This document shows positions 1,823 through 12,455 of a stretch of DNA of 12,456 nt, one piece after another (position 1 is the first letter of the stretch; the number at the start of each line of letters is the position of its first letter). The notes under the pieces were generated by a model. It made no database searches. It saw only the letters and a program-made list of their open reading frames with translations, and was not told where the DNA came from. Source of the DNA: Candidatus Nanohalobium sp. (GTDB lineage: Archaea > Nanohalarchaeota > Nanosalinia > Nanosalinales > Nanosalinaceae); NCBI GenBank assembly GCA_042217545.1, contig JBDGSM010000070.1:1-12456 (forward strand). Reading direction: 5' to 3'. Both the position numbers and the translations under genes were made by a program.

Positions 1823-3109
1823 ATGGCTGATAAACCACACATTAATCTTGTATTCATTGGACACGTTGACCACGGTAAATCTACTACCATCGGTAGGCTG
1901 CTGTGGGAAACAGAAAACCTTCCAGAAGAAGAAATGAGAAAGCTTGAGGAAGCTGCTGAGGAAGCAGGTAAGGAGTCTTTCAACTTCGCTTTCGCGATGG
2001 ACAATCTAGAGGAAGAGCGTGAGAGAGGAGTTACAATCGACCTGGCTCACCAGGAGTTTGACTCTGAGAATTACTATTTCACGATTATCGACGCTCCAGG
2101 CCACCGTGACTTCATCAAGAACATGATCACGGGAGCTTCTCAGGCTGACGCCGGAGTCCTTGTCGTCGCAGCAGACGACGGAATCCAGCCTCAGACAAAG
2201 GAGCACGCTTACCTCGCTAAGACACTGGGAATCGACCAGCTTGTCGTTGCAGTCAACAAGATGGACCTAGTTGACTACGAAGAAGACGGATTTAATGACA
2301 TCAAGGACGAGGTCTCGCAGATGATCCAGGGAGTCGGTTACGATACTTCCGACATCGACTTCGTACCTATCTCCAGCTTCGACGGCGAAGGAGTAGCAGA
2401 AAGCTCAGACGAGATGGGCTGGTATGACGGACCTTCACTACTTGAAGCACTTGACGACCTAGAAGAACCTGAGAAGGCAATCGATCTACCGACAAGAATC
2501 CCTATCCAGGACGTATACAACATCTCCGGAATCGGAGCTGTAACAGTCGGAAGAGTCGAGACAGGTGAACTCAACACAGGAGACGACGTAGTCTTCGAAC
2601 CAGCATCCACAAGACTGAACAGGAATGTAGGTGGAGAAGTCAAGTCCATCGAGATGCACCACGAAGAAGTAGAAGCAGCAGAGCCTGGTGACAACATCGG
2701 ATGGAACACAAGAGGCGTCGGAGAAGACGACGTCAAGAAGGGCGACGTAGCTGGAACAGCAGACAACCCACCAACAGTTGTCGAAAAGTTCGAAGCACAG
2801 GTCATCGTCCTCAACCACCCAAACGTCATCTCCGAGGGATACACACCAGTATTCCACGTCAACACCGCACAGGTCTCATGCACATTCGAGGACATCAAGT
2901 CCACCATGAACCCAAAGACAGGAGAGACGATCGAAGAAGACCCAGACTACATCAAACAGGGACAGGCAGCAAAAGTCACAATCAGGCCACAGCAGCCACT
3001 CGTCATCGAAGCAAACGACAACATCCCACAGATGTCACGCTTCGCAATCAGAGACATGGGACAGACAGTAGGAGCCGGACAGGCCCTATCCGTCGAAGAG
3101 AAAGAATAA
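1823..3109 (+). CDS. tuf: Translation elongation factor aEF-1alpha
   Basis: GHVDHGKST (G1), [17 protein letters not shown] (G3), NKMD (G4), [28 protein letters not shown]; 428 aa. Confidence 0.99.
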
Positions 3110-3267: not shown

Positions 3268-6200
3268 ATGAAAAGCAAAACCGCGTTCAGCGTTCTCCTG
3301 CTAATTCTCTCTGCCTCTCTAACGGCTGCAGCTCCCAGCATTTCTCTCAACGGACCCAGCAACGGCAGTGAAGCAGAAAGCCCTGTCAAATTCCAGTTCA
3401 CACCTCAGTGCAGCTCAAGCTGCAGCTCAGCAACCTTATCTTTCAACACAACAGGAAACCTGACATTCTCACGGACCATAGACAAATGGAAAACGGGCGA
3501 AAAAACCGGGGTAAAGGCCTCAAACAGCAACTTGACACTCTACCGTGAAGGCAGCACAGGAAACCTGAACTACAGATGGTACGATACAGGAAGTTACTAC
3601 AGCAGCAATGGCCATCCATCCAACACCGGGGAGATGAACAGCTTCTTCAACAGTTCAAAAAATGGAGTAAATCTAGGCGGCGAAGGCCTTCACAACGGTA
3701 GTGTAAGCTGGTATGATGGTTCAGACTGGGGCGAGAAACCTGATTATCTGCCAGCACAGGGTTATTCCTGGAAGGCCTCAGGTTATCTTTACGCACCGGA
3801 ATCAGGGGTCTATACGATAGGCCTTGACTCAGATGATGCCTCTGACGTCTTCATCAACGGCAGTAAAGTCGTCTCGTGGTACGGAGGCCACGCAGTTTCC
3901 GGCAGCTACGACCACAGCAACAAAGTATACCTGGATAAAGGCCAGTACACGATCAAGGTAAGGATGGAGGAAGGAGGCGGAGACGACGGCGTCTCAGTTG
4001 CCTGGAAAAAGCCAGGAGAATCCAGCTTCGAACTGATACCTGGTAAAAGATTTTCGAACTCGAGCATGGAGTACAACAGCTCGGGAAGTTACGAGACAGA
4101 GCCTTTCTCACTGAGTAATCCTGCTTACTGGACAGGAAAAAGTTTAGAGGCCTCCATCCCTGCAAACACCAGTCTGGACGTTAACTACGCAAGTAAAAGG
4201 CCTGGTGGCTGGGAATACTTTGAATCTTTAAGCGATGTTTCTCAGACGAGGAAGCTGAAAGTCAACTTCTCTCTTTCCACGGATGAGCCTCTGAAAAGCC
4301 CTGAAGTAAGTTATCTGAACCTTGAGTACAAGATGCCTGCCAACCAAGAGTTCAACTGGATCACAGATTCCGAAAGCGAATGGCAGAAAGGCTCAACGGA
4401 TCTGACCTCTATCGACTCAGGCACCGTCAAGTTGAAGAGGAACAGGTCAGGACCCAACAAAGAATTGAAGTATACCTGGTACAGTACTGAAGGCCTTAAT
4501 GAAAGAAATGGTTATGCTGACAGCGCTGAAGAGATGGATAATTTCTTCAACAGCTCTACAGAAGGAGTAAGCTTCGGCGGTTCCGGCATTCATGCTGAGC
4601 GAGTTCACTGGCACAGCGGCCAGTGGGATGAGAAACCTGCTTATCTTCCCGGAGATCACTATGCTTGGAAGGCCTCAGGATACCTCTACGCACCGAACAC
4701 AGGTACTTATACTATAGGTATTGATTCCGACGATGCCTCTGACGTCTTCATCGACGGTGAGAAAGTTGCCTCGTACTATGGCCCTCACGGGACTTCAGGA
4801 AGTTACGGTCACCAGGGAACGATCACCTTGGAAGAAGGATATCACAGGTTCAAAATCAGGATGCAGGAAGACACAGGCGGAGACGGAGTAAGCATCGCAT
4901 GGGAAAGACCAAACAAAAACAACATGAAAGTGATAAAGAGCAACCGTTTCTCTCGCAGACTGTACCAGCAATCAGGGAACTACACATCCAAAACCTTCTC
5001 CACGAAAAGAGAAGTTAAATGGGAAAAAGCCAGTGTAAAGGCCTCAACAGGAACAGATACAGACTACAGTATAGAGTACGGATACAACACGAGCGGGAGC
5101 TGGACCTACGTAAATTCAATAAGCTCAGTGCCCGAGACACGATTCCTGAAGTACAGGCTAGAGCTCAGCACTGCAGACGGAGAAAAGTCTCCTTCAGTCG
5201 ACAAAGTTAACCTGACCTATTCGAACTCTAAGGCCTCCTTCCAGGAGATGAAAACAGTAACAGATGTTCAGAGCGGTGTAGTGAATAATTTGAGCTTTGA
5301 TTTCTCAAGTTACTCCCTTCCAACTAACTTTCTGTGGAATATACAGGTCAAGCAGAGCGATGGCAGCACAAATATCTCAAAAAGTAGAGAGGTCAATGTA
5401 AGGCCTCATAGTTTCGCCTCACCAGACATAAAGTGGTCTGAACCTGAGGACGGGACTTCTAACAGGACGCCGATAAACTTCAGCTTCACACCGAAATGCT
5501 ACAGCGAGTACGGCTGCTACGAGGTAAGCCTCTATTTCAACAGCACAGGAGAGAAAGGAAGCTGGATCTTCAACCAGGATAATGACTGGAGCAGAGGCAG
5601 TCTATCCAATACTACTTTCGAAAGTGGTAAAGTGAAGCTTGAAGGAGAAGTTGGCGAGCAAGGGAAGCTGAGATACCGTTGGTACGACACTGAAGGCCTT
5701 AACCAGGACAACAGCTACGGCGACAGCAAAAAAGATATGGACAAGTTCTTCAACACCAAGATCGAAGGTGTAAGCCTTGAAGGCTCCGGAGAATACTCCA
5801 GAGAAGTCGACTGGAAGAACAACGAGTGGGATCCGAAGCCATCCTACCTGCCAGGAGATCATTACTCATGGAAGGCCTCAGGATACATCTACGCACCGAA
5901 CACAGGCACCTACAAATTCGGAATAGACTCCGATGACGCCTCAGACCTCTTCATCAACGGAGAAATGGTAACCTCCTACTATGGAGGACACGGAGATTCA
6001 GGTGACTACAGTCACAGCGGTACTGTGGAGCTCTCCGAAGGCTACCACACGTTAAAGGTCAGGATGCAGGAAGACACGGGAGGAGACGGAGTAAGCATCG
6101 CATGGGAAAGACCAAACAAAAACAACATGAAGGTGATACCTTCAAACAGGTTCTTCCTTAAAGATACAGAAAGCTCAGGAACTTATACGTCTCCAGTACT

Positions 6201-6843
6201 CAGCACAGGCAAGAAAGTAGATATTACAAAGGCCTCCATCGATAAAGATGTTCCTACAGGCACAGGCCTTGATCTGAAGTATCTTGAGAACACTTCAGGG
6301 GCCTGGAAGGTCTTCCCGGATCTTTCAAGTCTTCCACAGTCAAAGTACTTCAGGTTTAGAGCTGAGATGTCCTCGGGTTCGGAGAAGACACCTGCGCTCA
6401 GAAAGGTGAACCTCAGTTACGTCGATCATGAAATCTTCAAGAAACGTTTGAGCAAGAAAGACGTCTTTAACGGGACTTCAGGCGAGTTCAGTCTCCGGTT
6501 CCTTGACTATAGTCTGCCACAGACGTTCAAGACTGTACTGAGTGTGAAGCAGAGCGACGGACAGGTCACGAAGACAGATCCGAGGACAATAAAAGTCAAG
6601 TTCAGCGGAATCAAAGCCGAGATCTCCTGGAACGACAAGGCCTCAAACGAAATCGGCTACAAAATCTATACTAATGCCTCAGGTTCCTGGAACAAGGTAG
6701 GAGAAGTAGAGAGAAATACTGAAAGTTTCCAGGACCGCAATCCTAACATAAAGGATGGAGACTACGTATGTTACAGGGTTAAGGCCTTTAACACGGCAGG
6801 AGCTTCAGCTCCAGTAGAAGGGTGTGCAACATTCACGAGATGA
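3268..6843 (+). CDS. Large secreted surface glycoprotein, putative adhesin: three PA14 domains, Ig-like domains and a C-terminal FN3-like domain
   Basis: Sec-type signal peptide MKSKTAFSVLLLILSASLTAA. Three repeats with the PA14 signature (Y.WKASGY.YAP..G.Y..G.DSDDASD.FI.G...V..Y..H...G...L..G.H...VRM.E..G.DG..AW..P). The C-terminus ISWNDKASNEIGYKIY...FQD...YRVKAFNTAGAS is FN3-like. About 26 N-X-S/T sequons by manual count. No C-terminal membrane anchor. Confidence 0.85.
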   Translation: MKSKTAFSVLLLILSASLTAAAPSISLNGPSNGSEAESPVKFQFTPQCSSSCSSATLSFNTTGNLTFSRTIDKWKTGEKTGVKASNSNLTLYREGSTGNLNYRWYDTGSYYSSNGHPSNTGEMNSFFNSSKNGVNLGGEGLHNGSVSWYDGSDWGEKPDYLPAQGYSWKASGYLYAPESGVYTIGLDSDDASDVFINGSKVVSWYGGHAVSGSYDHSNKVYLDKGQYTIKVRMEEGGGDDGVSVAWKKPGESSFELIPGKRFSNSSMEYNSSGSYETEPFSLSNPAYWTGKSLEASIPANTSLDVNYASKRPGGWEYFESLSDVSQTRKLKVNFSLSTDEPLKSPEVSYLNLEYKMPANQEFNWITDSESEWQKGSTDLTSIDSGTVKLKRNRSGPNKELKYTWYSTEGLNERNGYADSAEEMDNFFNSSTEGVSFGGSGIHAERVHWHSGQWDEKPAYLPGDHYAWKASGYLYAPNTGTYTIGIDSDDASDVFIDGEKVASYYGPHGTSGSYGHQGTITLEEGYHRFKIRMQEDTGGDGVSIAWERPNKNNMKVIKSNRFSRRLYQQSGNYTSKTFSTKREVKWEKASVKASTGTDTDYSIEYGYNTSGSWTYVNSISSVPETRFLKYRLELSTADGEKSPSVDKVNLTYSNSKASFQEMKTVTDVQSGVVNNLSFDFSSYSLPTNFLWNIQVKQSDGSTNISKSREVNVRPHSFASPDIKWSEPEDGTSNRTPINFSFTPKCYSEYGCYEVSLYFNSTGEKGSWIFNQDNDWSRGSLSNTTFESGKVKLEGEVGEQGKLRYRWYDTEGLNQDNSYGDSKKDMDKFFNTKIEGVSLEGSGEYSREVDWKNNEWDPKPSYLPGDHYSWKASGYIYAPNTGTYKFGIDSDDASDLFINGEMVTSYYGGHGDSGDYSHSGTVELSEGYHTLKVRMQEDTGGDGVSIAWERPNKNNMKVIPSNRFFLKDTESSGTYTSPVLSTGKKVDITKASIDKDVPTGTGLDLKYLENTSGAWKVFPDLSSLPQSKYFRFRAEMSSGSEKTPALRKVNLSYVDHEIFKKRLSKKDVFNGTSGEFSLRFLDYSLPQTFKTVLSVKQSDGQVTKTDPRTIKVKFSGIKAEISWNDKASNEIGYKIYTNASGSWNKVGEVERNTESFQDRNPNIKDGDYVCYRVKAFNTAGASAPVEGCATFTR
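3565..4056 (+). repeat. PA14 domain copy 1
   Basis: LNYRWYDTG...GLDSDDASDVFING...RMEEGGGDDGVSVAWKKP...IPGKRFS. Confidence 0.8.
4465..4953 (+). repeat. PA14 domain copy 2
   Basis: LKYTWYSTEG...GIDSDDASDVFIDG...RMQEDTGGDGVSIAWERP...IKSNRFS. Confidence 0.8.
5668..6156 (+). repeat. PA14 domain copy 3
   Basis: LRYRWYDTEG...GIDSDDASDLFING...RMQEDTGGDGVSIAWERP...IPSNRFF. Confidence 0.8.
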
Positions 6844-7328
6844 AAGGACAGTCGGCTATAGAGTACCTGATGAGTTACGGTTGGATGCTGCTTGTAGTAG
6901 CGATTATAGGAGGTGCTATTTACACGACAGTCGGTGGAAGATGCGTTACTTCAACTTCCGGCTTCTCAAGTACAGACGTAAGAGTGGCAGACTTCGGAAC
7001 AACAGGTTCAGGTGAATTAAGGTTTAACCTGAGGAACGCTCATCCGGAACCGATCGAGATAACCAATATTTCAGTTACTTCAGAGACCTCAGGTCAGACG
7101 GTCAGTTCAGGCGATTTAACTAGGATACCGGCTCTTGGGACCTCTACTGCCCCAGTCTCAGATGTCTACTTCCAGGAAGCCAACGGCTGTAACGTGATTC
7201 AGGTTCAGATAACTTATGACTCGGGAGGTATAGAGAACCAGATCGTGACAGGCCAGTTTACCAGCAAAATCAAGATGGGTGCTTCTGCACTTCCTTCCCA
7301 ACCTACCAGCCTTTCGCTCTCATCCTAG
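6840..7328 (+). CDS. Type IV pilin-like protein with a class III signal peptide (162 aa)
   Basis: Likely start is ATG 6840, overlapping the upstream TGA (ATGA), not GTG 6822. MKG/QSAIEYLMSYGWMLLVVAIIGGAIY has basic residue plus Gly at -1, Gln +1, Glu +5 and a hydrophobic helix (class III / DUF361-type). Two Cys in the globular domain. Confidence 0.88.
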   Translation: MKGQSAIEYLMSYGWMLLVVAIIGGAIYTTVGGRCVTSTSGFSSTDVRVADFGTTGSGELRFNLRNAHPEPIEITNISVTSETSGQTVSSGDLTRIPALGTSTAPVSDVYFQEANGCNVIQVQITYDSGGIENQIVTGQFTSKIKMGASALPSQPTSLSLSS

Positions 7329-7382: not shown

Positions 7383-7691
7383 ATGCAGAGAGCAAGAGTG
7401 AAGCTGAGAAGCACCGATCAGGGAAAGGTTGACAGTCTTGCAGATGAAATCCTGGAGATCGGCGACGAATACAACGCCAAGGTATCAGGACCTGTACCTC
7501 TCCCGACACAGGAGATGGAAGTAACCACAAGAAAAGCTCCGGACGGAGAAGGAAGCTCTACAATCGAACACTACGAGATGCACGTCCACAAGAGACTCAT
7601 CGACATCACAGAGTCAGAAAGGGCGCTGAGACAGGTCATGAGAGTTCATGTACCAGAAGGCGTAGACATCGAAATCGAACTACAGGAATAA
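7383..7691 (+). CDS. rpsJ: 30S ribosomal protein uS10
   Basis: ARVKLRS, VSGPVPLPT, TTRKAPDGEGS, YEMHVHKRLIDI, RQVMRVHVPEGVDIEI; 102 aa. Confidence 0.98.
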   Translation: MQRARVKLRSTDQGKVDSLADEILEIGDEYNAKVSGPVPLPTQEMEVTTRKAPDGEGSSTIEHYEMHVHKRLIDITESERALRQVMRVHVPEGVDIEIELQE

Positions 7692-7925: not shown

Positions 7926-8273
7926 TTACCTATCTACTGACTGAGAGATCAGAAGTTCTCTCCTGACCAGGTATGTTTCGCGGTAGATCGATGCTATGTA
8001 TGTTAGGCCCGAGTAGAGGGCCAGGAGGATTGTAATCCCTACGTAAGATGATATTCTGGCGATTATATCCATTCTGAGGGCGAATGTTGCTGCGAAGGAC
8101 GTTATTATGCCCGCGTAGAGAAGTATCTTTACTATAAGTTGAGCTGTTTTAGCCGTCCTGTATTTCTTGACTGCCTGTCTGTATTCCCCCCGGTCATGAG
8201 TTTTGAACTGCTCTATTTCCTCGCTGAGGATCTTATCTGCTCTTCCGAGAGGTGTGAATTTGGAAAGGCTCAT
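7926..8273 (-). CDS. Small hypothetical membrane protein (2 predicted TM helices)
   Basis: 115-aa ORF filling the gap between the tRNA and htrA. Hydrophobic segments LIVKILLYAGIITSFAATFAL and ISSYVGITILLALYSGLTYIASIY. TATA-like GTTAAAA on the minus strand at 8299-8305. Confidence 0.75.
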   Translation of the reverse strand: MSLSKFTPLGRADKILSEEIEQFKTHDRGEYRQAVKKYRTAKTAQLIVKILLYAGIITSFAATFALRMDIIARISSYVGITILLALYSGLTYIASIYRETYLVRRELLISQSVDR

Positions 8274-8327
8274 ATGTTGGATATTGTACCATTAGAGGTT
8301 TTAACTTTGCGTAGGACAGGTTCCAGA

Positions 8328-8335
8328 TATTTAAG
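8328..8335 (+). promoter_or_regulatory. TATA box of htrA, probably giving a leaderless transcript
   Basis: TATTTAAG ends about 22 nt before ATG 8358. Confidence 0.55.
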
Positions 8336-8357
8336 ATTCTACGATCATTACAGTAGT

Positions 8358-9488
8358 ATGAATCTAGGCAGGAAGATCGACCTTTTCGGCGTTATCGCCG
8401 TCCTGCTTTTCGGGGCGGTTCTTGGAGGAGCTTTAACGTTCCAGAACATGAATTCCCGGCTTAACAGCCTGGAAAGCCAGGTATCGAACCCCGGCGGGAA
8501 TGTCACCACCAGGCTCGTATACGTGAATACTACAAACAGCGGCTTACCTGAACTCTACGATATGCTGGACCAATCCGTCGTCTCTGTAACTTCCTACGGT
8601 GCCCAGTCCGCCCAGGGATCAGGTTTCATCTACAGCAAGAAAGGATACATAGTTACTAACAACCATGTCGTCGACGGTGCGAACCACGTAGAGGTCACCT
8701 TCACCGATGGCACAACAGTTAACGCGGACATCGTCGGTACAGATCCATACACAGATCTTGCAGTACTCAAGGTCAGCAAGAAAGGCCTCGATCCGGTAGA
8801 TCTTGGGAACTCCACCAAAGTCGAGGTAGGGCAGGAAGCGATAGCGATCGGCAATCCTTTCGGCCTGAAAAGCTCAATGACCAGCGGGATAATTTCCGCG
8901 AAAGGAAGAACCATCCGGGCACAACAGGGCTTCTCGATGCCGAACATCCTCCAAACCGATGCACCCATCAACCCTGGAAACTCCGGAGGCCCTCTCCTCA
9001 ACAAGTACGGAAAAGTAGTCGGCGTCAACACGGCGATCGACACGCAGACAGGAACGTTTTCCGGCGTGGGATTCGCTATTCCTGCCAACACCGTAAGACG
9101 TGTAGTACCGGAAATTATCTCCCATGGAGACTACAATCATCCCTACATAGGTGTCAGAGGCCTCAACGTAGGACCTGACATCGCGGAAAAGATGAATCTG
9201 AATAAGGCCTCAGGATTCCTCATCACTGAAGTACCTAACGGCACAGCAGCCGACGAGGCAGGTCTCAGAGGAGGACAGTACGAGGACACCATCCAGGGAA
9301 GAAAGATCGGCCTTGGAGGAGACGTAATAGTAGGTATCAACGGCACCAAAGTAAGAAGCCTCCAGGACGTGCTGACTTACCTGGCTAGAGAGGCAGAAGT
9401 AGGCGATACGATAACTATCACAGTCATCCGGGATGGCAAACGTAAAACATTCAACTTGAAGCTCCGTTCAAGGCCTGAAGCCAATTAG
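8358..9488 (+). CDS. htrA: Membrane-anchored HtrA/DegP-family serine protease with one PDZ domain (376 aa)
   Basis: Start reassigned from 8139 to ATG 8358 (MNLGRKIDLFGVIAVLLFGAVLGGAL, TM anchor), which removes the overlap with the divergent gene. Catalytic triad in TNNHVV, DLAVL and QTDAPINPGNSGGPL; PDZ signatures YIGV, AADEAGL and GGDVIVGING. Confidence 0.95.
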   Translation: MNLGRKIDLFGVIAVLLFGAVLGGALTFQNMNSRLNSLESQVSNPGGNVTTRLVYVNTTNSGLPELYDMLDQSVVSVTSYGAQSAQGSGFIYSKKGYIVTNNHVVDGANHVEVTFTDGTTVNADIVGTDPYTDLAVLKVSKKGLDPVDLGNSTKVEVGQEAIAIGNPFGLKSSMTSGIISAKGRTIRAQQGFSMPNILQTDAPINPGNSGGPLLNKYGKVVGVNTAIDTQTGTFSGVGFAIPANTVRRVVPEIISHGDYNHPYIGVRGLNVGPDIAEKMNLNKASGFLITEVPNGTAADEAGLRGGQYEDTIQGRKIGLGGDVIVGINGTKVRSLQDVLTYLAREAEVGDTITITVIRDGKRKTFNLKLRSRPEAN

Positions 9489-10471
9489 GGCCTGTATCTG
9501 AGGAAGGCCGCAAGGCCTCCAAAGTTTTCTATTCTTTCACCTGCTTCGTGGTCTGTATGGAGGATTATTACTTCTCCGCCCTGTCTCTCGACCATTTTAG
9601 GGACTTCAGGCATCTCTCTTCTCTTCTCCGCCGTTATCAACAGTTTTTCGACCGCTCCAATTTCCGCCTGTTCCTCAACTTTTTCCCCGTAATCTACAAG
9701 TCCGTCTTCCCTGAGTGCGTCAAGGAACTTTTCGACTTCCTGTGTCTCCTCGGATATACGTGAGCTCTCCTCTACTTTCTTCAGTGCTCCACGTTTGATA
9801 GCTTCGTGAAGGCCTGTCTTTCCAGTCACTGAAGTGTCCTGGAGGAAGATTTTTTCCTTTAAATCTTCTGAGAGCTCATTGTAGACCTTATTTTTCTCGT
9901 GGCCCGGCCCGGCAAGGATTACCTTGTCCATGTCTTTTGCTGAGCGTTTGAGGACCTTGTTTACCTGATTGTAGAAGTCCTTACCTGATTTCTGGTCTGG
10001 ATACATCTTCCCGGGGATGTTCTCAGCGACATCGGATAGGTCTTTGATACCTGACTCCTCCACGACGTAGAGGTTGGCTTCTCCTTTCTCTACTAGGCAG
10101 AAAAGAACTTTGTAGGCCTCGTTTTGCTCTGCTTCCATGAGACGTTCCCATTCCTCCTCTGTAAACTTTTTCCAGAGCTCGAACTCTTTCTCTGGTTCGA
10201 GGTTGAATGTGTGGTAGCCAAGTTCCACATCGTCGACTGCTTCCGTGATCTCTCCGGTGACCCTGAGCCGGTCCTGCTGATACTCAGTTTTTTCGACGCG
10301 GATCGTGAGGGTGCATGTCTTCTTCTCCCGGCCGTCGAGCTTGGTTCTCTGCGTCAGGGCCCGTGCATGGTCGCCTTCAGCGATCAGGTCTTTCATATAC
10401 CAGAGATCATCCCTGTTTTCCAGGGCTATCTTGGCATATCCGTCTTCCTTACTGCTTTTGATTATCTCCAT
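9485..10471 (-). CDS. pelA: Pelota (Dom34) ribosome-rescue factor, eRF1-like (328 aa)
   Basis: Start reassigned to ATG 10471 (MEIIKSS). Pelota motifs DDLWY, RLRVTG, LGYHTFNL, IPGK, ILAGPG, GLHEAIKR and GERIENFGGLAAFLRY; no GGQ or NIKS, so not aRF1. Overlaps the htrA 3' end by 4 nt (convergent). Confidence 0.93.
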   Translation of the reverse strand: MEIIKSSKEDGYAKIALENRDDLWYMKDLIAEGDHARALTQRTKLDGREKKTCTLTIRVEKTEYQQDRLRVTGEITEAVDDVELGYHTFNLEPEKEFELWKKFTEEEWERLMEAEQNEAYKVLFCLVEKGEANLYVVEESGIKDLSDVAENIPGKMYPDQKSGKDFYNQVNKVLKRSAKDMDKVILAGPGHEKNKVYNELSEDLKEKIFLQDTSVTGKTGLHEAIKRGALKKVEESSRISEETQEVEKFLDALREDGLVDYGEKVEEQAEIGAVEKLLITAEKRREMPEVPKMVERQGGEVIILHTDHEAGERIENFGGLAAFLRYRP

Positions 10472-10490
10472 ACAAAGGAAAAGGCCTCTT

Positions 10491-10501
10491 ACAAATAAAA
10501 A
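10491..10501. promoter_or_regulatory. AT-rich element centred in the 52-bp divergent gap; possible shared bidirectional TATA
   Basis: ACAAATAAAAA lies about 20-30 nt from both ATG 10471 (-) and ATG 10524 (+). Confidence 0.4.
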
Positions 10502-10523
10502 CCCCCAAACGAAAAACTGAACC

Positions 10524-11666
10524 ATGGAGCAAGGTTTCGCCGTAGTTCTAGTCGCAGGCCTCGCAGTTTTCGGCCTGATGTTCCTGGCAGGCCAGTCCAA
10601 CTTCACGCCTCAGCAGCCTGTACAGGGGAATAGAGTAGTTCTGGCCGAGAAAAATGTCGGCACTGTCGGCGGAGCCAGAACCGATATAAGAAATATCTCA
10701 TTCAGAAGCTTTACTGTCGGCGAAACAAGAGGTGATATCCAGGCCTACACCGAGGACCAGGAACAGATCTCAAGCAGCCTCTTCTCCGGCGACTCCATAG
10801 ATGTGAAGTATAACGCAACTCAGCCCGAAGGCGGCCAGGTAAGCTTTGAAGTCCTGGGACGGACAGGCAAAGGAAAGATCTGGGTGAACGTCAACGGTAA
10901 AGATGTCTTCAAGGCCGCCACGGTAACAGGAGCGACACCGAAGATCAACTTTTCAGGTAAAAACCTTCATCCGGGAATGAATGACATCAGGATAGGTACG
11001 ACCAGCGGAGGATGGTTCAGCTCGGCCAGTTACACACTGGAAGAAGTGGAGGTAACTGTCAACGATCGGAAGTTCCATGACTACCAGACCTCCTTCAAAC
11101 TATACAACCATGAACTCAATAATTACGCAGGAAGCAACCTGACATTTACAATACCCATGGATGCCTCAAGGCCTGACGCACCGTTAAAGATCGATGTAAA
11201 CGGACATCAGGTATTCTCCGACAAGCTTGTAAGATCGACTCAGGAGATCAAGGTAGGCAAGAGGGAGGCAGACCTGACACCAGGTTACAATACTATAGAC
11301 TTTGACACCAACGGCGATTCAATGTACCACGTTCAGGACCCTGAAATCGTGATGCAGTACCTCGGTACTACGAGGCCTGGTACTCTAAGGCTCGACTTCA
11401 AGGCCACGCCCGGACAGCTTGCATACGCCAAGGATGGAGCTACGAAGGAGATAATCAGCTTCGATTATCAGAACAATCTTCCTTCAGATCATCCCCTTGA
11501 CATATCCTTGAACGGGAATAAATACCGCGTATCTCCTTTGAACGGAAAGAATACTGTTGATATAAAGGCCTCAGATCTTAAAGAGGACAACACGTTGACA
11601 ATAAACAGCGATGGATCATTTAACATGCAAAACCTCCAAGTAGTTTCTGAGAAGGTGAAAGAATAG
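10524..11666 (+). CDS. Hypothetical N-terminally anchored extracellular beta-rich protein with three internal repeats
   Basis: N-terminal hydrophobic helix GFAVVLVAGLAVFGLMFLAG. Repeats: KIWVNVNG..VF...NLHPGMNDIRI, PLKIDVNG..VF...DLTPGYNTIDF and PLDISLNG......DLKEDNTLTI. Several N-glycosylation sequons. Confidence 0.8.
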   Translation: MEQGFAVVLVAGLAVFGLMFLAGQSNFTPQQPVQGNRVVLAEKNVGTVGGARTDIRNISFRSFTVGETRGDIQAYTEDQEQISSSLFSGDSIDVKYNATQPEGGQVSFEVLGRTGKGKIWVNVNGKDVFKAATVTGATPKINFSGKNLHPGMNDIRIGTTSGGWFSSASYTLEEVEVTVNDRKFHDYQTSFKLYNHELNNYAGSNLTFTIPMDASRPDAPLKIDVNGHQVFSDKLVRSTQEIKVGKREADLTPGYNTIDFDTNGDSMYHVQDPEIVMQYLGTTRPGTLRLDFKATPGQLAYAKDGATKEIISFDYQNNLPSDHPLDISLNGNKYRVSPLNGKNTVDIKASDLKEDNTLTINSDGSFNMQNLQVVSEKVKE

Positions 11667-12455
11667 ATGAGCGACGACGACGGCGGAGGAATGGTCGGCA
11701 AACTCCTAAAATGGGGTATACTACTATTCCTGTTCGGCATCTTCCCTCCGCTGTTCTTCGTATGGATTGGATGGAAGTACGTCAAGATGTGCGTACTGTT
11801 CTACTTCAAGATGCTTTACCTCATCATAAGATTCCCAATATGGCTATTCATCCAGCTACCACTGTACTACATAGGCGTAGGAGTGCACACCATCTCCAAC
11901 GCATTCAGCAAGGCCTACGGCGTAATGGTCGCAAAGAAGAAAAGATACGGCCTCTTATTTGGAATACTGCTACTGTTCACCATAAGAACATTCCTTCCGC
12001 ACAACACGGACGCGATGGTGTCCTTCCTTACAAGTGCAACACTAATACTACCGCTGGTATTCTTCATACCGTTCTTTTTCACATTCCTGGTTGCAGCCAT
12101 ATCCGCACACTTCAGGATGCCAGATATTGCAAGAAAAGAGATGCCGGGCGGCATGAACACAGGAATGAAGAGGAGAACAGGACAGGCAGCGAGAGCAGCC
12201 GCATCAGCAGGAGCAATGGGCGTAAAGGCCTACAAGAACAAAGAAGAAATAAAAGCAGCTAAAGGAACTGCAGAAGACCTGGCAAGTGGCGCAATGGATA
12301 CCGCTGAAGCAGCAGCTGGAGAGGGCGCACTCGCAGGAGACATGGTATCCGTCCTGGAGGGAATGCCTATGCTCGGAACAATGGTGGAAGGCGGAGGCGT
12401 CGCAGCAGGTTCAGCAGCAACAATTGCCGGGATGACTGGTGGAACAGCAATACTC
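11667..12455 (+). CDS. Hypothetical polytopic membrane protein with an Ala/Gly-rich region, 3'-truncated (absent from the ORF track)
   Basis: ATG 11667 directly follows TAG 11666. Manual translation stays open to the window end: MSDDDGGGMVGKLLKWGILLFLFGIFPPLFFVWIGWKYVKMCVLFYFKMLYLIIRFPIWLFIQLPLYYIGVG...KKKRYGLLFGILLLFTIRTF...LILPLVFFIPFFFTFLVAAISAHF...GQAARAAASAGAMG...GGGVAAGSAATIAGMTGGTAIL. Confidence 0.85.
   Translation, partial: MSDDDGGGMVGKLLKWGILLFLFGIFPPLFFVWIGWKYVKMCVLFYFKMLYLIIRFPIWLFIQLPLYYIGVGVHTISNAFSKAYGVMVAKKKRYGLLFGILLLFTIRTFLPHNTDAMVSFLTSATLILPLVFFIPFFFTFLVAAISAHFRMPDIARKEMPGGMNTGMKRRTGQAARAAASAGAMGVKAYKNKEEIKAAKGTAEDLASGAMDTAEAAAGEGALAGDMVSVLEGMPMLGTMVEGGGVAAGSAATIAGMTGGTAIL

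Follow-up and report, generated by a model that had tools for sequence, protein, structure and literature searches.

The gene pair between EF-1alpha and S10

The window, by which we mean the whole 12,456-nucleotide stretch of Candidatus Nanohalobium DNA analysed here, is contig C68 of a 1.03 Mb genome (G000) that is 92% complete. The two genes between those for EF-1alpha and S10 encode an adhesin-like protein and a pilin-like protein (Table 1). Their reading frames (3268-6843 and 6840-7328) share the four nucleotides ATGA, the coupling that a first-pass annotation of this DNA had reported. The slot between EF-1alpha and S10 is variable: it is empty in G034 and holds different genes in G001, G021 and G017. 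In G045 it is occupied by one of that genome's three copies of the truncated domain described below.

Table 1. Features of the window (positions in nucleotides of the forward strand)
Feature	Position	Strand	Basis or remarks
EF-1alpha gene	1823-3109		upstream neighbour of the adhesin/pilin pair
Secreted adhesin-like protein, 1,191 aa (130 kDa mature)	3268-6843	+	two insert-interrupted Ig-like repeats, three PA14 domains, C-terminal FN3 without strand A
Predicted Sec signal peptide, residues 1-21	3268-3330	+	by eye and hydropathy; putative cleavage site
PA14 domain 1 with SDDAS motif	3721-4032	+	Pfam PF07691, best stretch residues 152-255
PA14 domain 2	4618-4929	+	bounds approximate, from the SDDAS motif offset
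Second Ig-like repeat, N-terminal part	5419-5553	+	36% identity to the first repeat, E 5e-10
PA14 domain 3	5821-6132	+	bounds approximate
Second Ig-like repeat, C-terminal part, ending with RTIKVK (6583-6600)	6427-6600	+	repeat alignment
FN3 strands B-G without strand A (socket)	6610-6840	+	residues 1115-1191; model, structure alignment, strand-A scoring
ATGA start/stop overlap of adhesin and pilin	6840-6843	+
Archaeal type IV pilin-like protein, 162 aa	6840-7328	+	class III signal (MKG/QSAIEY), helix 6-31, beta-sandwich 38-146
Linker GASA after the final pilin strand	7278-7289	+
Strand-A-like C-terminal tail (tag), then stop	7290-7328	+	matrix score, model, alignment
S10 gene	7383-7691		downstream neighbour of the adhesin/pilin pair
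115-aa membrane protein	first of the genes in 7926-12455	-
Gene taken to encode an HtrA-like protease	8139-9488		downstream of the pair
Gene taken to be pelota-like	9485-10606	-	downstream of the pair
Secreted beta-rich protein, 380 aa	10524-11666		no Pfam family
Membrane protein gene running past the window end	last of the genes in 7926-12455

The adhesin had been described as a Sec-exported protein with no transmembrane anchor, lipobox or PGF-CTERM, and both hydropathy and a motif check agree with this. There is a single N-terminal hydrophobic stretch (KD19 1.98; runner-up 0.53), and no early cysteine or lipobox, PGF-CTERM or second hydrophobic segment was found in the sequence. PF07691 matches the protein in three stretches (E 1.7e-42, above the Pfam cut-off), and the Asp-Asp motif is present; we take this SDDAS motif of PA14/GLEYA domains to have a role in Ca/sugar binding. 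The PA14 domains make the adhesin a predicted lectin, for which host-glycan binding is the likely purpose. The region 3331-6600 is nested, each PA14 domain lying inside a beta-rich module and the module inside an Ig-like repeat, and it holds 26 N-glycosylation sequons. The model of the C-terminal half is poor outside PA14 and FN3 (pTM 0.35; pLDDT 35-50 in the region of the second Ig-like repeat); thus, the placement of RTIKVK comes from the alignment of the repeats and not from the model.

The adhesin ends in an FN3 domain that begins at strand B

The last 77 residues of the adhesin are predicted as six strands with pLDDT 76-93 and superpose on solved FN3 domains. The single-domain matches begin at model residue 397-400, so only strands B-G are aligned. 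Superposition with residues 26-100 of FN3con (4u3h) gives a Z score of 9.5 and an rmsd of 2.2 for 74 aligned residues. The core pattern of FN3 is present, with Trp in strand B and Tyr in strands C and F; the strand A that should precede strand B in the same chain is not. We refer to this domain as the socket. The Pfam fn3 model (PF00041) gives no match to the socket of the window and matches three of 12 aligned relatives, with a best E value of 0.001. Cys1168 and Cys1186 lie on strands F and G, where they probably form a disulfide; the F-G cysteine pair is found in 15 of 16 aligned sockets.

Strand A was scored with a matrix trained on half of 2,029 intact FN3 repeats, which were collected by a profile search of 1.84 billion proteins and have the consensus PAAPSNLTATA. 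The motif lies 20 residues upstream of the strand-B Trp in 1,326 of these repeats. The residues preceding strand B in the window score -8.4, compared with a median of 17.3 and a 5th percentile of 5.2 for held-out intact FN3 domains. All 19 scored sockets are without an upstream strand A (-16.9 to 0.4), and scores as low as these occur in 2.6% of 1,015 held-out intact domains. In the relatives, strand B comes straight after the final strand of another domain, such as Ig or PKD. Similarly, RTIKVK in the window aligns with REVNVR at the end of the first Ig-like repeat (35% identity over 55 aa, E 7e-10). The first-pass annotation had read the end of the adhesin as an FN3 starting at strand B without the usual opening, with RTIKVK closing the preceding Ig-like unit; the six-strand model, the superposition, the strand-A score and the repeat alignment bear this out.

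The pilin carries a strand-A-like tail

The head of the second protein finds its best Foldseek match in an archaeal type IV pilus (8fk7, E 2.4e-5) and also matches 6w8u (E 4.8e-3). Pfam and NCBIfam pilin models do not match the window pilin (P0001), and the class III signal was recognized by sequence pattern. This signal is intact, with Glu at +5, and the protein is 56% identical over the pilin to a tail-less pilin encoded beside TadC. The signal pattern, the N-terminal helix and the likeness of the head to solved archaeal pilins agree with the class III signal pilin annotated at first. The genome also encodes an assembly ATPase (PF00437, E 7e-40), TadC-like genes identified by inspection and a prepilin-peptidase-like gene that lies below the cut-off (E 0.003).

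Tail-less pilins beside TadC genes stop at the final strand. In the window pilin, the head ends at residue 146 and models as complete without a tail strand; residues 147-162 are coil, and the block pLDDT falls from 84 to 61 and 54. Packing of the tail onto its own head, named beforehand as evidence against a donor role, is therefore not seen in the model. The tail, LPSQPTSLSLSS (7290-7325), scores 10.7 as a strand A, which is in the lower quartile of intact strand As, and ranks first among the ends of 1,452 ORFs of at least 100 aa in the genome (99th percentile 3.9), as expected from the earlier description of a short linker followed by an FN3-like strand A. Another tail-like ORF end (G000:C80:5353-5712, score 9.6) was rejected, since it arises from a frameshift next to an N gap, where reading resumes in another frame.

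Among 88 distinct pilin ORFs from the examined loci, 12 score above 4 as strand A, two have variant tails that score near 0 and were called by eye (G017 and G022:C66), and the others are tail-less. One tailed pilin, in G031, was missed by the filter for these 88 ORFs and added from inspection of the locus. Tails were called from profile matches reaching the model end together with inspection, with only some of the pilin matches cut out. A scan of five genomes with PF04021 found nothing.

Predicted complex

The complex of the socket with the pilin head and tail, in which RTIKVKF was kept as a competitor, gave scores of 0.34, 0.27 and 0.35, and three controls gave 0.00. In the benchmark, 116 of 157 solved pairs and two of 215 mismatched pairs reached the mark; at scores of 0.60 or below, only 18 solved pairs and both mismatches did so. 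The runs agree in at least 89% of contacts, with a partner pLDDT of at least 69. A split domain can pass this test through its likeness to solved FN3 domains. No interface was displayed with the prediction, so the contact need not be that of the tail. The expectation had been a complete seven-stranded FN3 with a confident interface: the difference from the controls (0.34 versus 0.00) agrees with it weakly, and neither the confident interface nor the seventh strand was displayed.

Co-occurrence of tail and socket

Among 70 genomes of the phylum, 12 have a socket, 12 have a tail, 10 have both and 56 have neither; in this tally the G068 socket is an N-broken fragment, and G067, whose pilin is broken, counts as tail-only. 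Weak matches in G033, G056, G017:C11, G008, G041, G049, G037, G023 and others are internal, intact or unrelated domains and were excluded from the socket count. The Fisher p value for the association (1e-8) overstates it, because the genomes are kin and not independent. More telling is the joint presence of socket and tail in seven genera, in which the near-complete congeners G001, G019, G021 and G003 have neither.

Eight of 15 intact tailed pilins directly adjoin a socket gene (two in G000, one each in G002 and G014, three in G022 and one in L103), and three lie within about 1 kb of a socket (G031, G065 and, beside the N-broken fragment, G068). For one the next gene runs off the contig end (G017), for two the socket is encoded at another site of the genome (G029, G071), and for one no socket was found (G010, 72% complete). 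The broken tailed fragments G065:C50 and G067:C76 are excluded from these 15. The pair of the window is syntenic in G002 and G014, and G022 has three pairs, one of them in reverse order. G000 itself has a second pair on C5, located 2.6 kb from the assembly ATPase and near the prepilin-peptidase-like gene, in which a LamG cargo is followed by a pilin with three tandem tail motifs. In this pilin (G000:C5:15817-16443; L038 6818-7444), two 21-residue A+B-like repeats precede a final A.

The cargoes that end in a socket are unrelated and include PA14, LamG (one to nine copies), PKD/GLUG and DUF2341 proteins. Of 14 further cargoes examined, 13 have an N-terminal hydrophobic segment, and no later segment exceeds 1.2 in any of them. 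The pilins also belong to two families. In genus g16, sockets are present and family-1 pilins are found in none of the three genomes; in the metagenomic locus L103, the gene after a socket gene encodes a pilin that has the same tail and belongs to a second family (KGISPLIA type; TIGR02537), and a query with this pilin finds a tailed pilin in each of the three g16 genomes. The sockets of G017 and G022:C52 form a clade (100/99), and their pilins, although of different families, have a common variant tail (P.PM..S.f.V..Q). We infer that the G017 pilin and socket are one locus across a contig break. This single case, in which a tail variant tracks a socket variant, suggests covariation. Tailed pilins of both families also recur near RtcB/archease and ribosomal-protein L3 genes (L103, L115, L117, L037, L084 and L087; gene names read from the sequences), a second variable slot.

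Tail and truncated FN3 thus occur together in homologous and in non-homologous loci, which is the opposite of the separate occurrence that the first-pass annotation had set down as counting against its proposal. The system is also broader than the one first proposed, with many cargoes and pilins of two families, and with pairs in either gene order or unlinked. A frameshifted fusion had been excluded from the gene order, B-G first and then A, and this holds: in the pilin-first pair of G022:C52, a signal-peptide protein of 1,030 aa separates the tail from the socket.

Beyond the phylum, locus L111 has a bacterial-type pair, in which a Big_9-like protein (1-1377) ends in an A-less FN3 with the Cys pair, and the neighbouring gene (1388-2725) encodes a secreted 433-aa protein with a strand-A tail (score 14.2). 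L107, L109 and L110 have A-less C-terminal FN3s resembling that of L111; the L110 neighbour is without a tail, and the L107 and L109 sequences stop before the neighbour can be judged. On the viral contigs L240 and L241 (3887-4345), a signal peptide is followed by FN3 strands B-G and then A, a circular permutant in one chain; the cut between A and B is thus used in nature. The best 150 matches of the profile search in 1.84 billion proteins are multi-repeat intact FN3 proteins only, so this search does not map sockets outside the phylum. A genome-wide scan beyond the phylum gave three loci, two intact FN3s and one spurious match.

Comparison with known systems

Compared with PF00041 domains, the split domain has the same B-G fold, the conserved Trp/Tyr pattern and a strand A of consensus P..P..L, but it is encoded in two proteins and has the F-G Cys pair. 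The nearest known system is that of PilC/PilY1 with PilK/PilX at bacterial type IV pilus tips, which the available text of two papers attributes to beta-strand complementation (PMC12918778; PMC13711793). It is alike in working, as a short C-terminal strand ties a non-pilin adhesin to a (minor) pilin, but the propeller and the strand direction place our proteins outside it. First, the adhesin there gives a strand to the sheet of the pilin, whereas here it is the pilin, with a head that models as complete, that has a strand to spare and would give it to a dedicated, portable FN3 domain found on unrelated cargoes. Second, the adhesin of the window is archaeal and has no beta-propeller, only three PA14 domains with Ig and FN3. 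The available text of PMC12918778 does not contain the terms fibronectin, FN3 or DPANN.

Donor-strand complementation or exchange is reported for the Pam pili of CPR bacteria (PMC13278184) and for archaeal cannulae, threads and Tat bundling pili (PMC12518558, PMC9715654, PMC12337348). As in these filaments, an incomplete Ig-like sandwich would be completed by a strand of another chain. However, donor-strand systems build filaments by subunits, whereas a one-to-one joint on a type IV pilin is proposed here, with a C-terminal tail as FN3 strand A. In classical chaperone-usher pili, an N-terminal extension replaces strand G; here the donor is C-terminal and the missing strand is A, and no chaperone or usher is evident in the loci examined.

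A third comparison is with pilins that carry their module by fusion. Streptococcus sanguinis PilC is described, in the text available, as a modular type IV pilin with a fused lectin module (PMC9934059), and 49 longer pilin homologs of 285-893 aa include nanohaloarchaeal pilin-PKD, pilin-LamG and pilin-DUF285 fusions. In both arrangements the pilin would display a lectin or adhesive module; the fusions are covalent, whereas the cargo here is 263-2,583 aa long and made as a protein of its own with a signal peptide. Because members of this pilin family are also found fused directly to their cargo, the split domain seems to be a detachable counterpart of such fusions. G022, G034, G021 and G065 have expanded sets of nine to 15 pilin paralogs, and fusions to PKD, LamG, DUF285 or FGE-sulfatase-like domains are frequent among them.

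Proposed mechanism and alternatives

What is observed is that the FN3 domain is split, that the split is conserved and that it recurs with unrelated cargoes and in two families of pilins, which confirms the split as a real feature; its reading as a connector between pilin and adhesin is supported by the sequences. We propose, with a probability of roughly 0.78, that the adhesin socket and the pilin tail join outside the cell as one FN3 domain and so hold the predicted lectin on type IV pili or on pilins that stay in the membrane. The adhesin would use the Sec route for export, and the prepilin peptidase would process the pilin. The tail would then pair with strand B, completing the A-B-E sheet, and the F-G cysteine pair may steady the socket while it is incomplete. 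Strands A and B of an FN3 domain begin at opposite ends of the sandwich, which would place the pilin and the cargo along one axis. Finally, the adhesin would be displayed by a pilin incorporated in the filament.

It is also conceivable, though at long odds, that the six-stranded FN3 is a stable stand-alone module, or one completed by a strand of the host or S-layer, that the adhesin is secreted or attached otherwise and that the tail is a relic of a pilin-FN3 fusion. In G045 (88% complete), a scan of all 34 contigs found three sockets but no tail, either on 10 listed class III-like proteins or on other ORF ends, which fits this reading, as do the L110 socket beside a tail-less neighbour and the G000:C5 tail, where A plus the B-like repeats resemble truncated FN3 starts. 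However, the G045 sockets (C11, C22; L099-L101) fall in a clade of their own, which also holds one long-branch row; their strand-B Trp is replaced by Phe or Tyr, and their C' loop is longer. The tail is conserved on two pilin families, stops where strand A ends and seems to vary with the socket; FN3 is listed in none of the 49 longer pilin homologs, and no FN3 match lies within any pilin ORF of the 70 genomes. G004 (82% complete) has a socket and no tail was seen in it, one of its pilins being cut by a contig end; G010 and G067 have tails only, and all three genomes are 72-82% complete. The adhesin of the window would depend on a partner to stay on the cell, a dependence to be set beside the G045 sockets with no detectable tail.

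Slightly less probable again is a variant in which the tail binds the socket but the role of the pilin is that of an export chaperone or a single membrane anchor outside the filament. The pair of the window lies away from the main pilin/TadC locus, and S. sanguinis PilA is described, in the part of the paper available, as an intrapilus chaperone through modelled strand complementation (PMC9934059). A role outside the filament is harder to reconcile with the intact class III signal with Glu at +5, the close relation to the tail-less pilin beside TadC and the nearness of the second pair to the assembly ATPase. Lastly, it is very improbable that the FN3 is complete with RTIKVKF as its strand A, as the first-pass annotation had considered: by eye the spacing from Pro to the strand-B Trp is like that of an intact domain, one structural match (2ha1, rmsd 9.7) aligns from model residue 382 and the model of the second Ig-like repeat is poor, but the segment is homologous to the final strand of the first repeat, scores -8.4, precedes a superposition that starts at strand B and shows no conservation across sockets; in several of these the preceding domain leaves no room before strand B.

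The tethering of adhesin to pilin by a split FN3 may have a wider use. A strand-A tag of 12-16 residues on differing pilin families, with a socket on any secreted host-recognition protein, could constitute a portable tag/catcher toolkit with mutually selective variants, in which adhesins would be swapped or multiplexed in trans and the host range altered with the pilus unchanged. We regard this extension as tentative, at a little under even odds.

Implications

No description of a split-FN3 joint between pilin and adhesin was found in the full-text literature covered, which consisted mostly of main texts open without subscription. Large secreted adhesins have been proposed in archaeal pilus loci, without a tether in the text available (PMC4858521). 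For nanohaloarchaea, type IV pili and lectin-domain proteins have both been proposed for host attachment (10.1101/2023.02.24.529834; PMC10266531), and the available text of these two sources does not state the route of anchor-less lectins to the surface.

A natural salt-tolerant split FN3, possibly with selective variants, could serve as a protein connector. The tethering of adhesins by strand complementation would be extended to archaeal type IV pili, with the polarity reversed. The socket provides a sequence marker for candidate host-recognition proteins. For the attachment of DPANN symbionts to their hosts, the split FN3 would offer a concrete link, made up of a peptide and a 77-residue domain.
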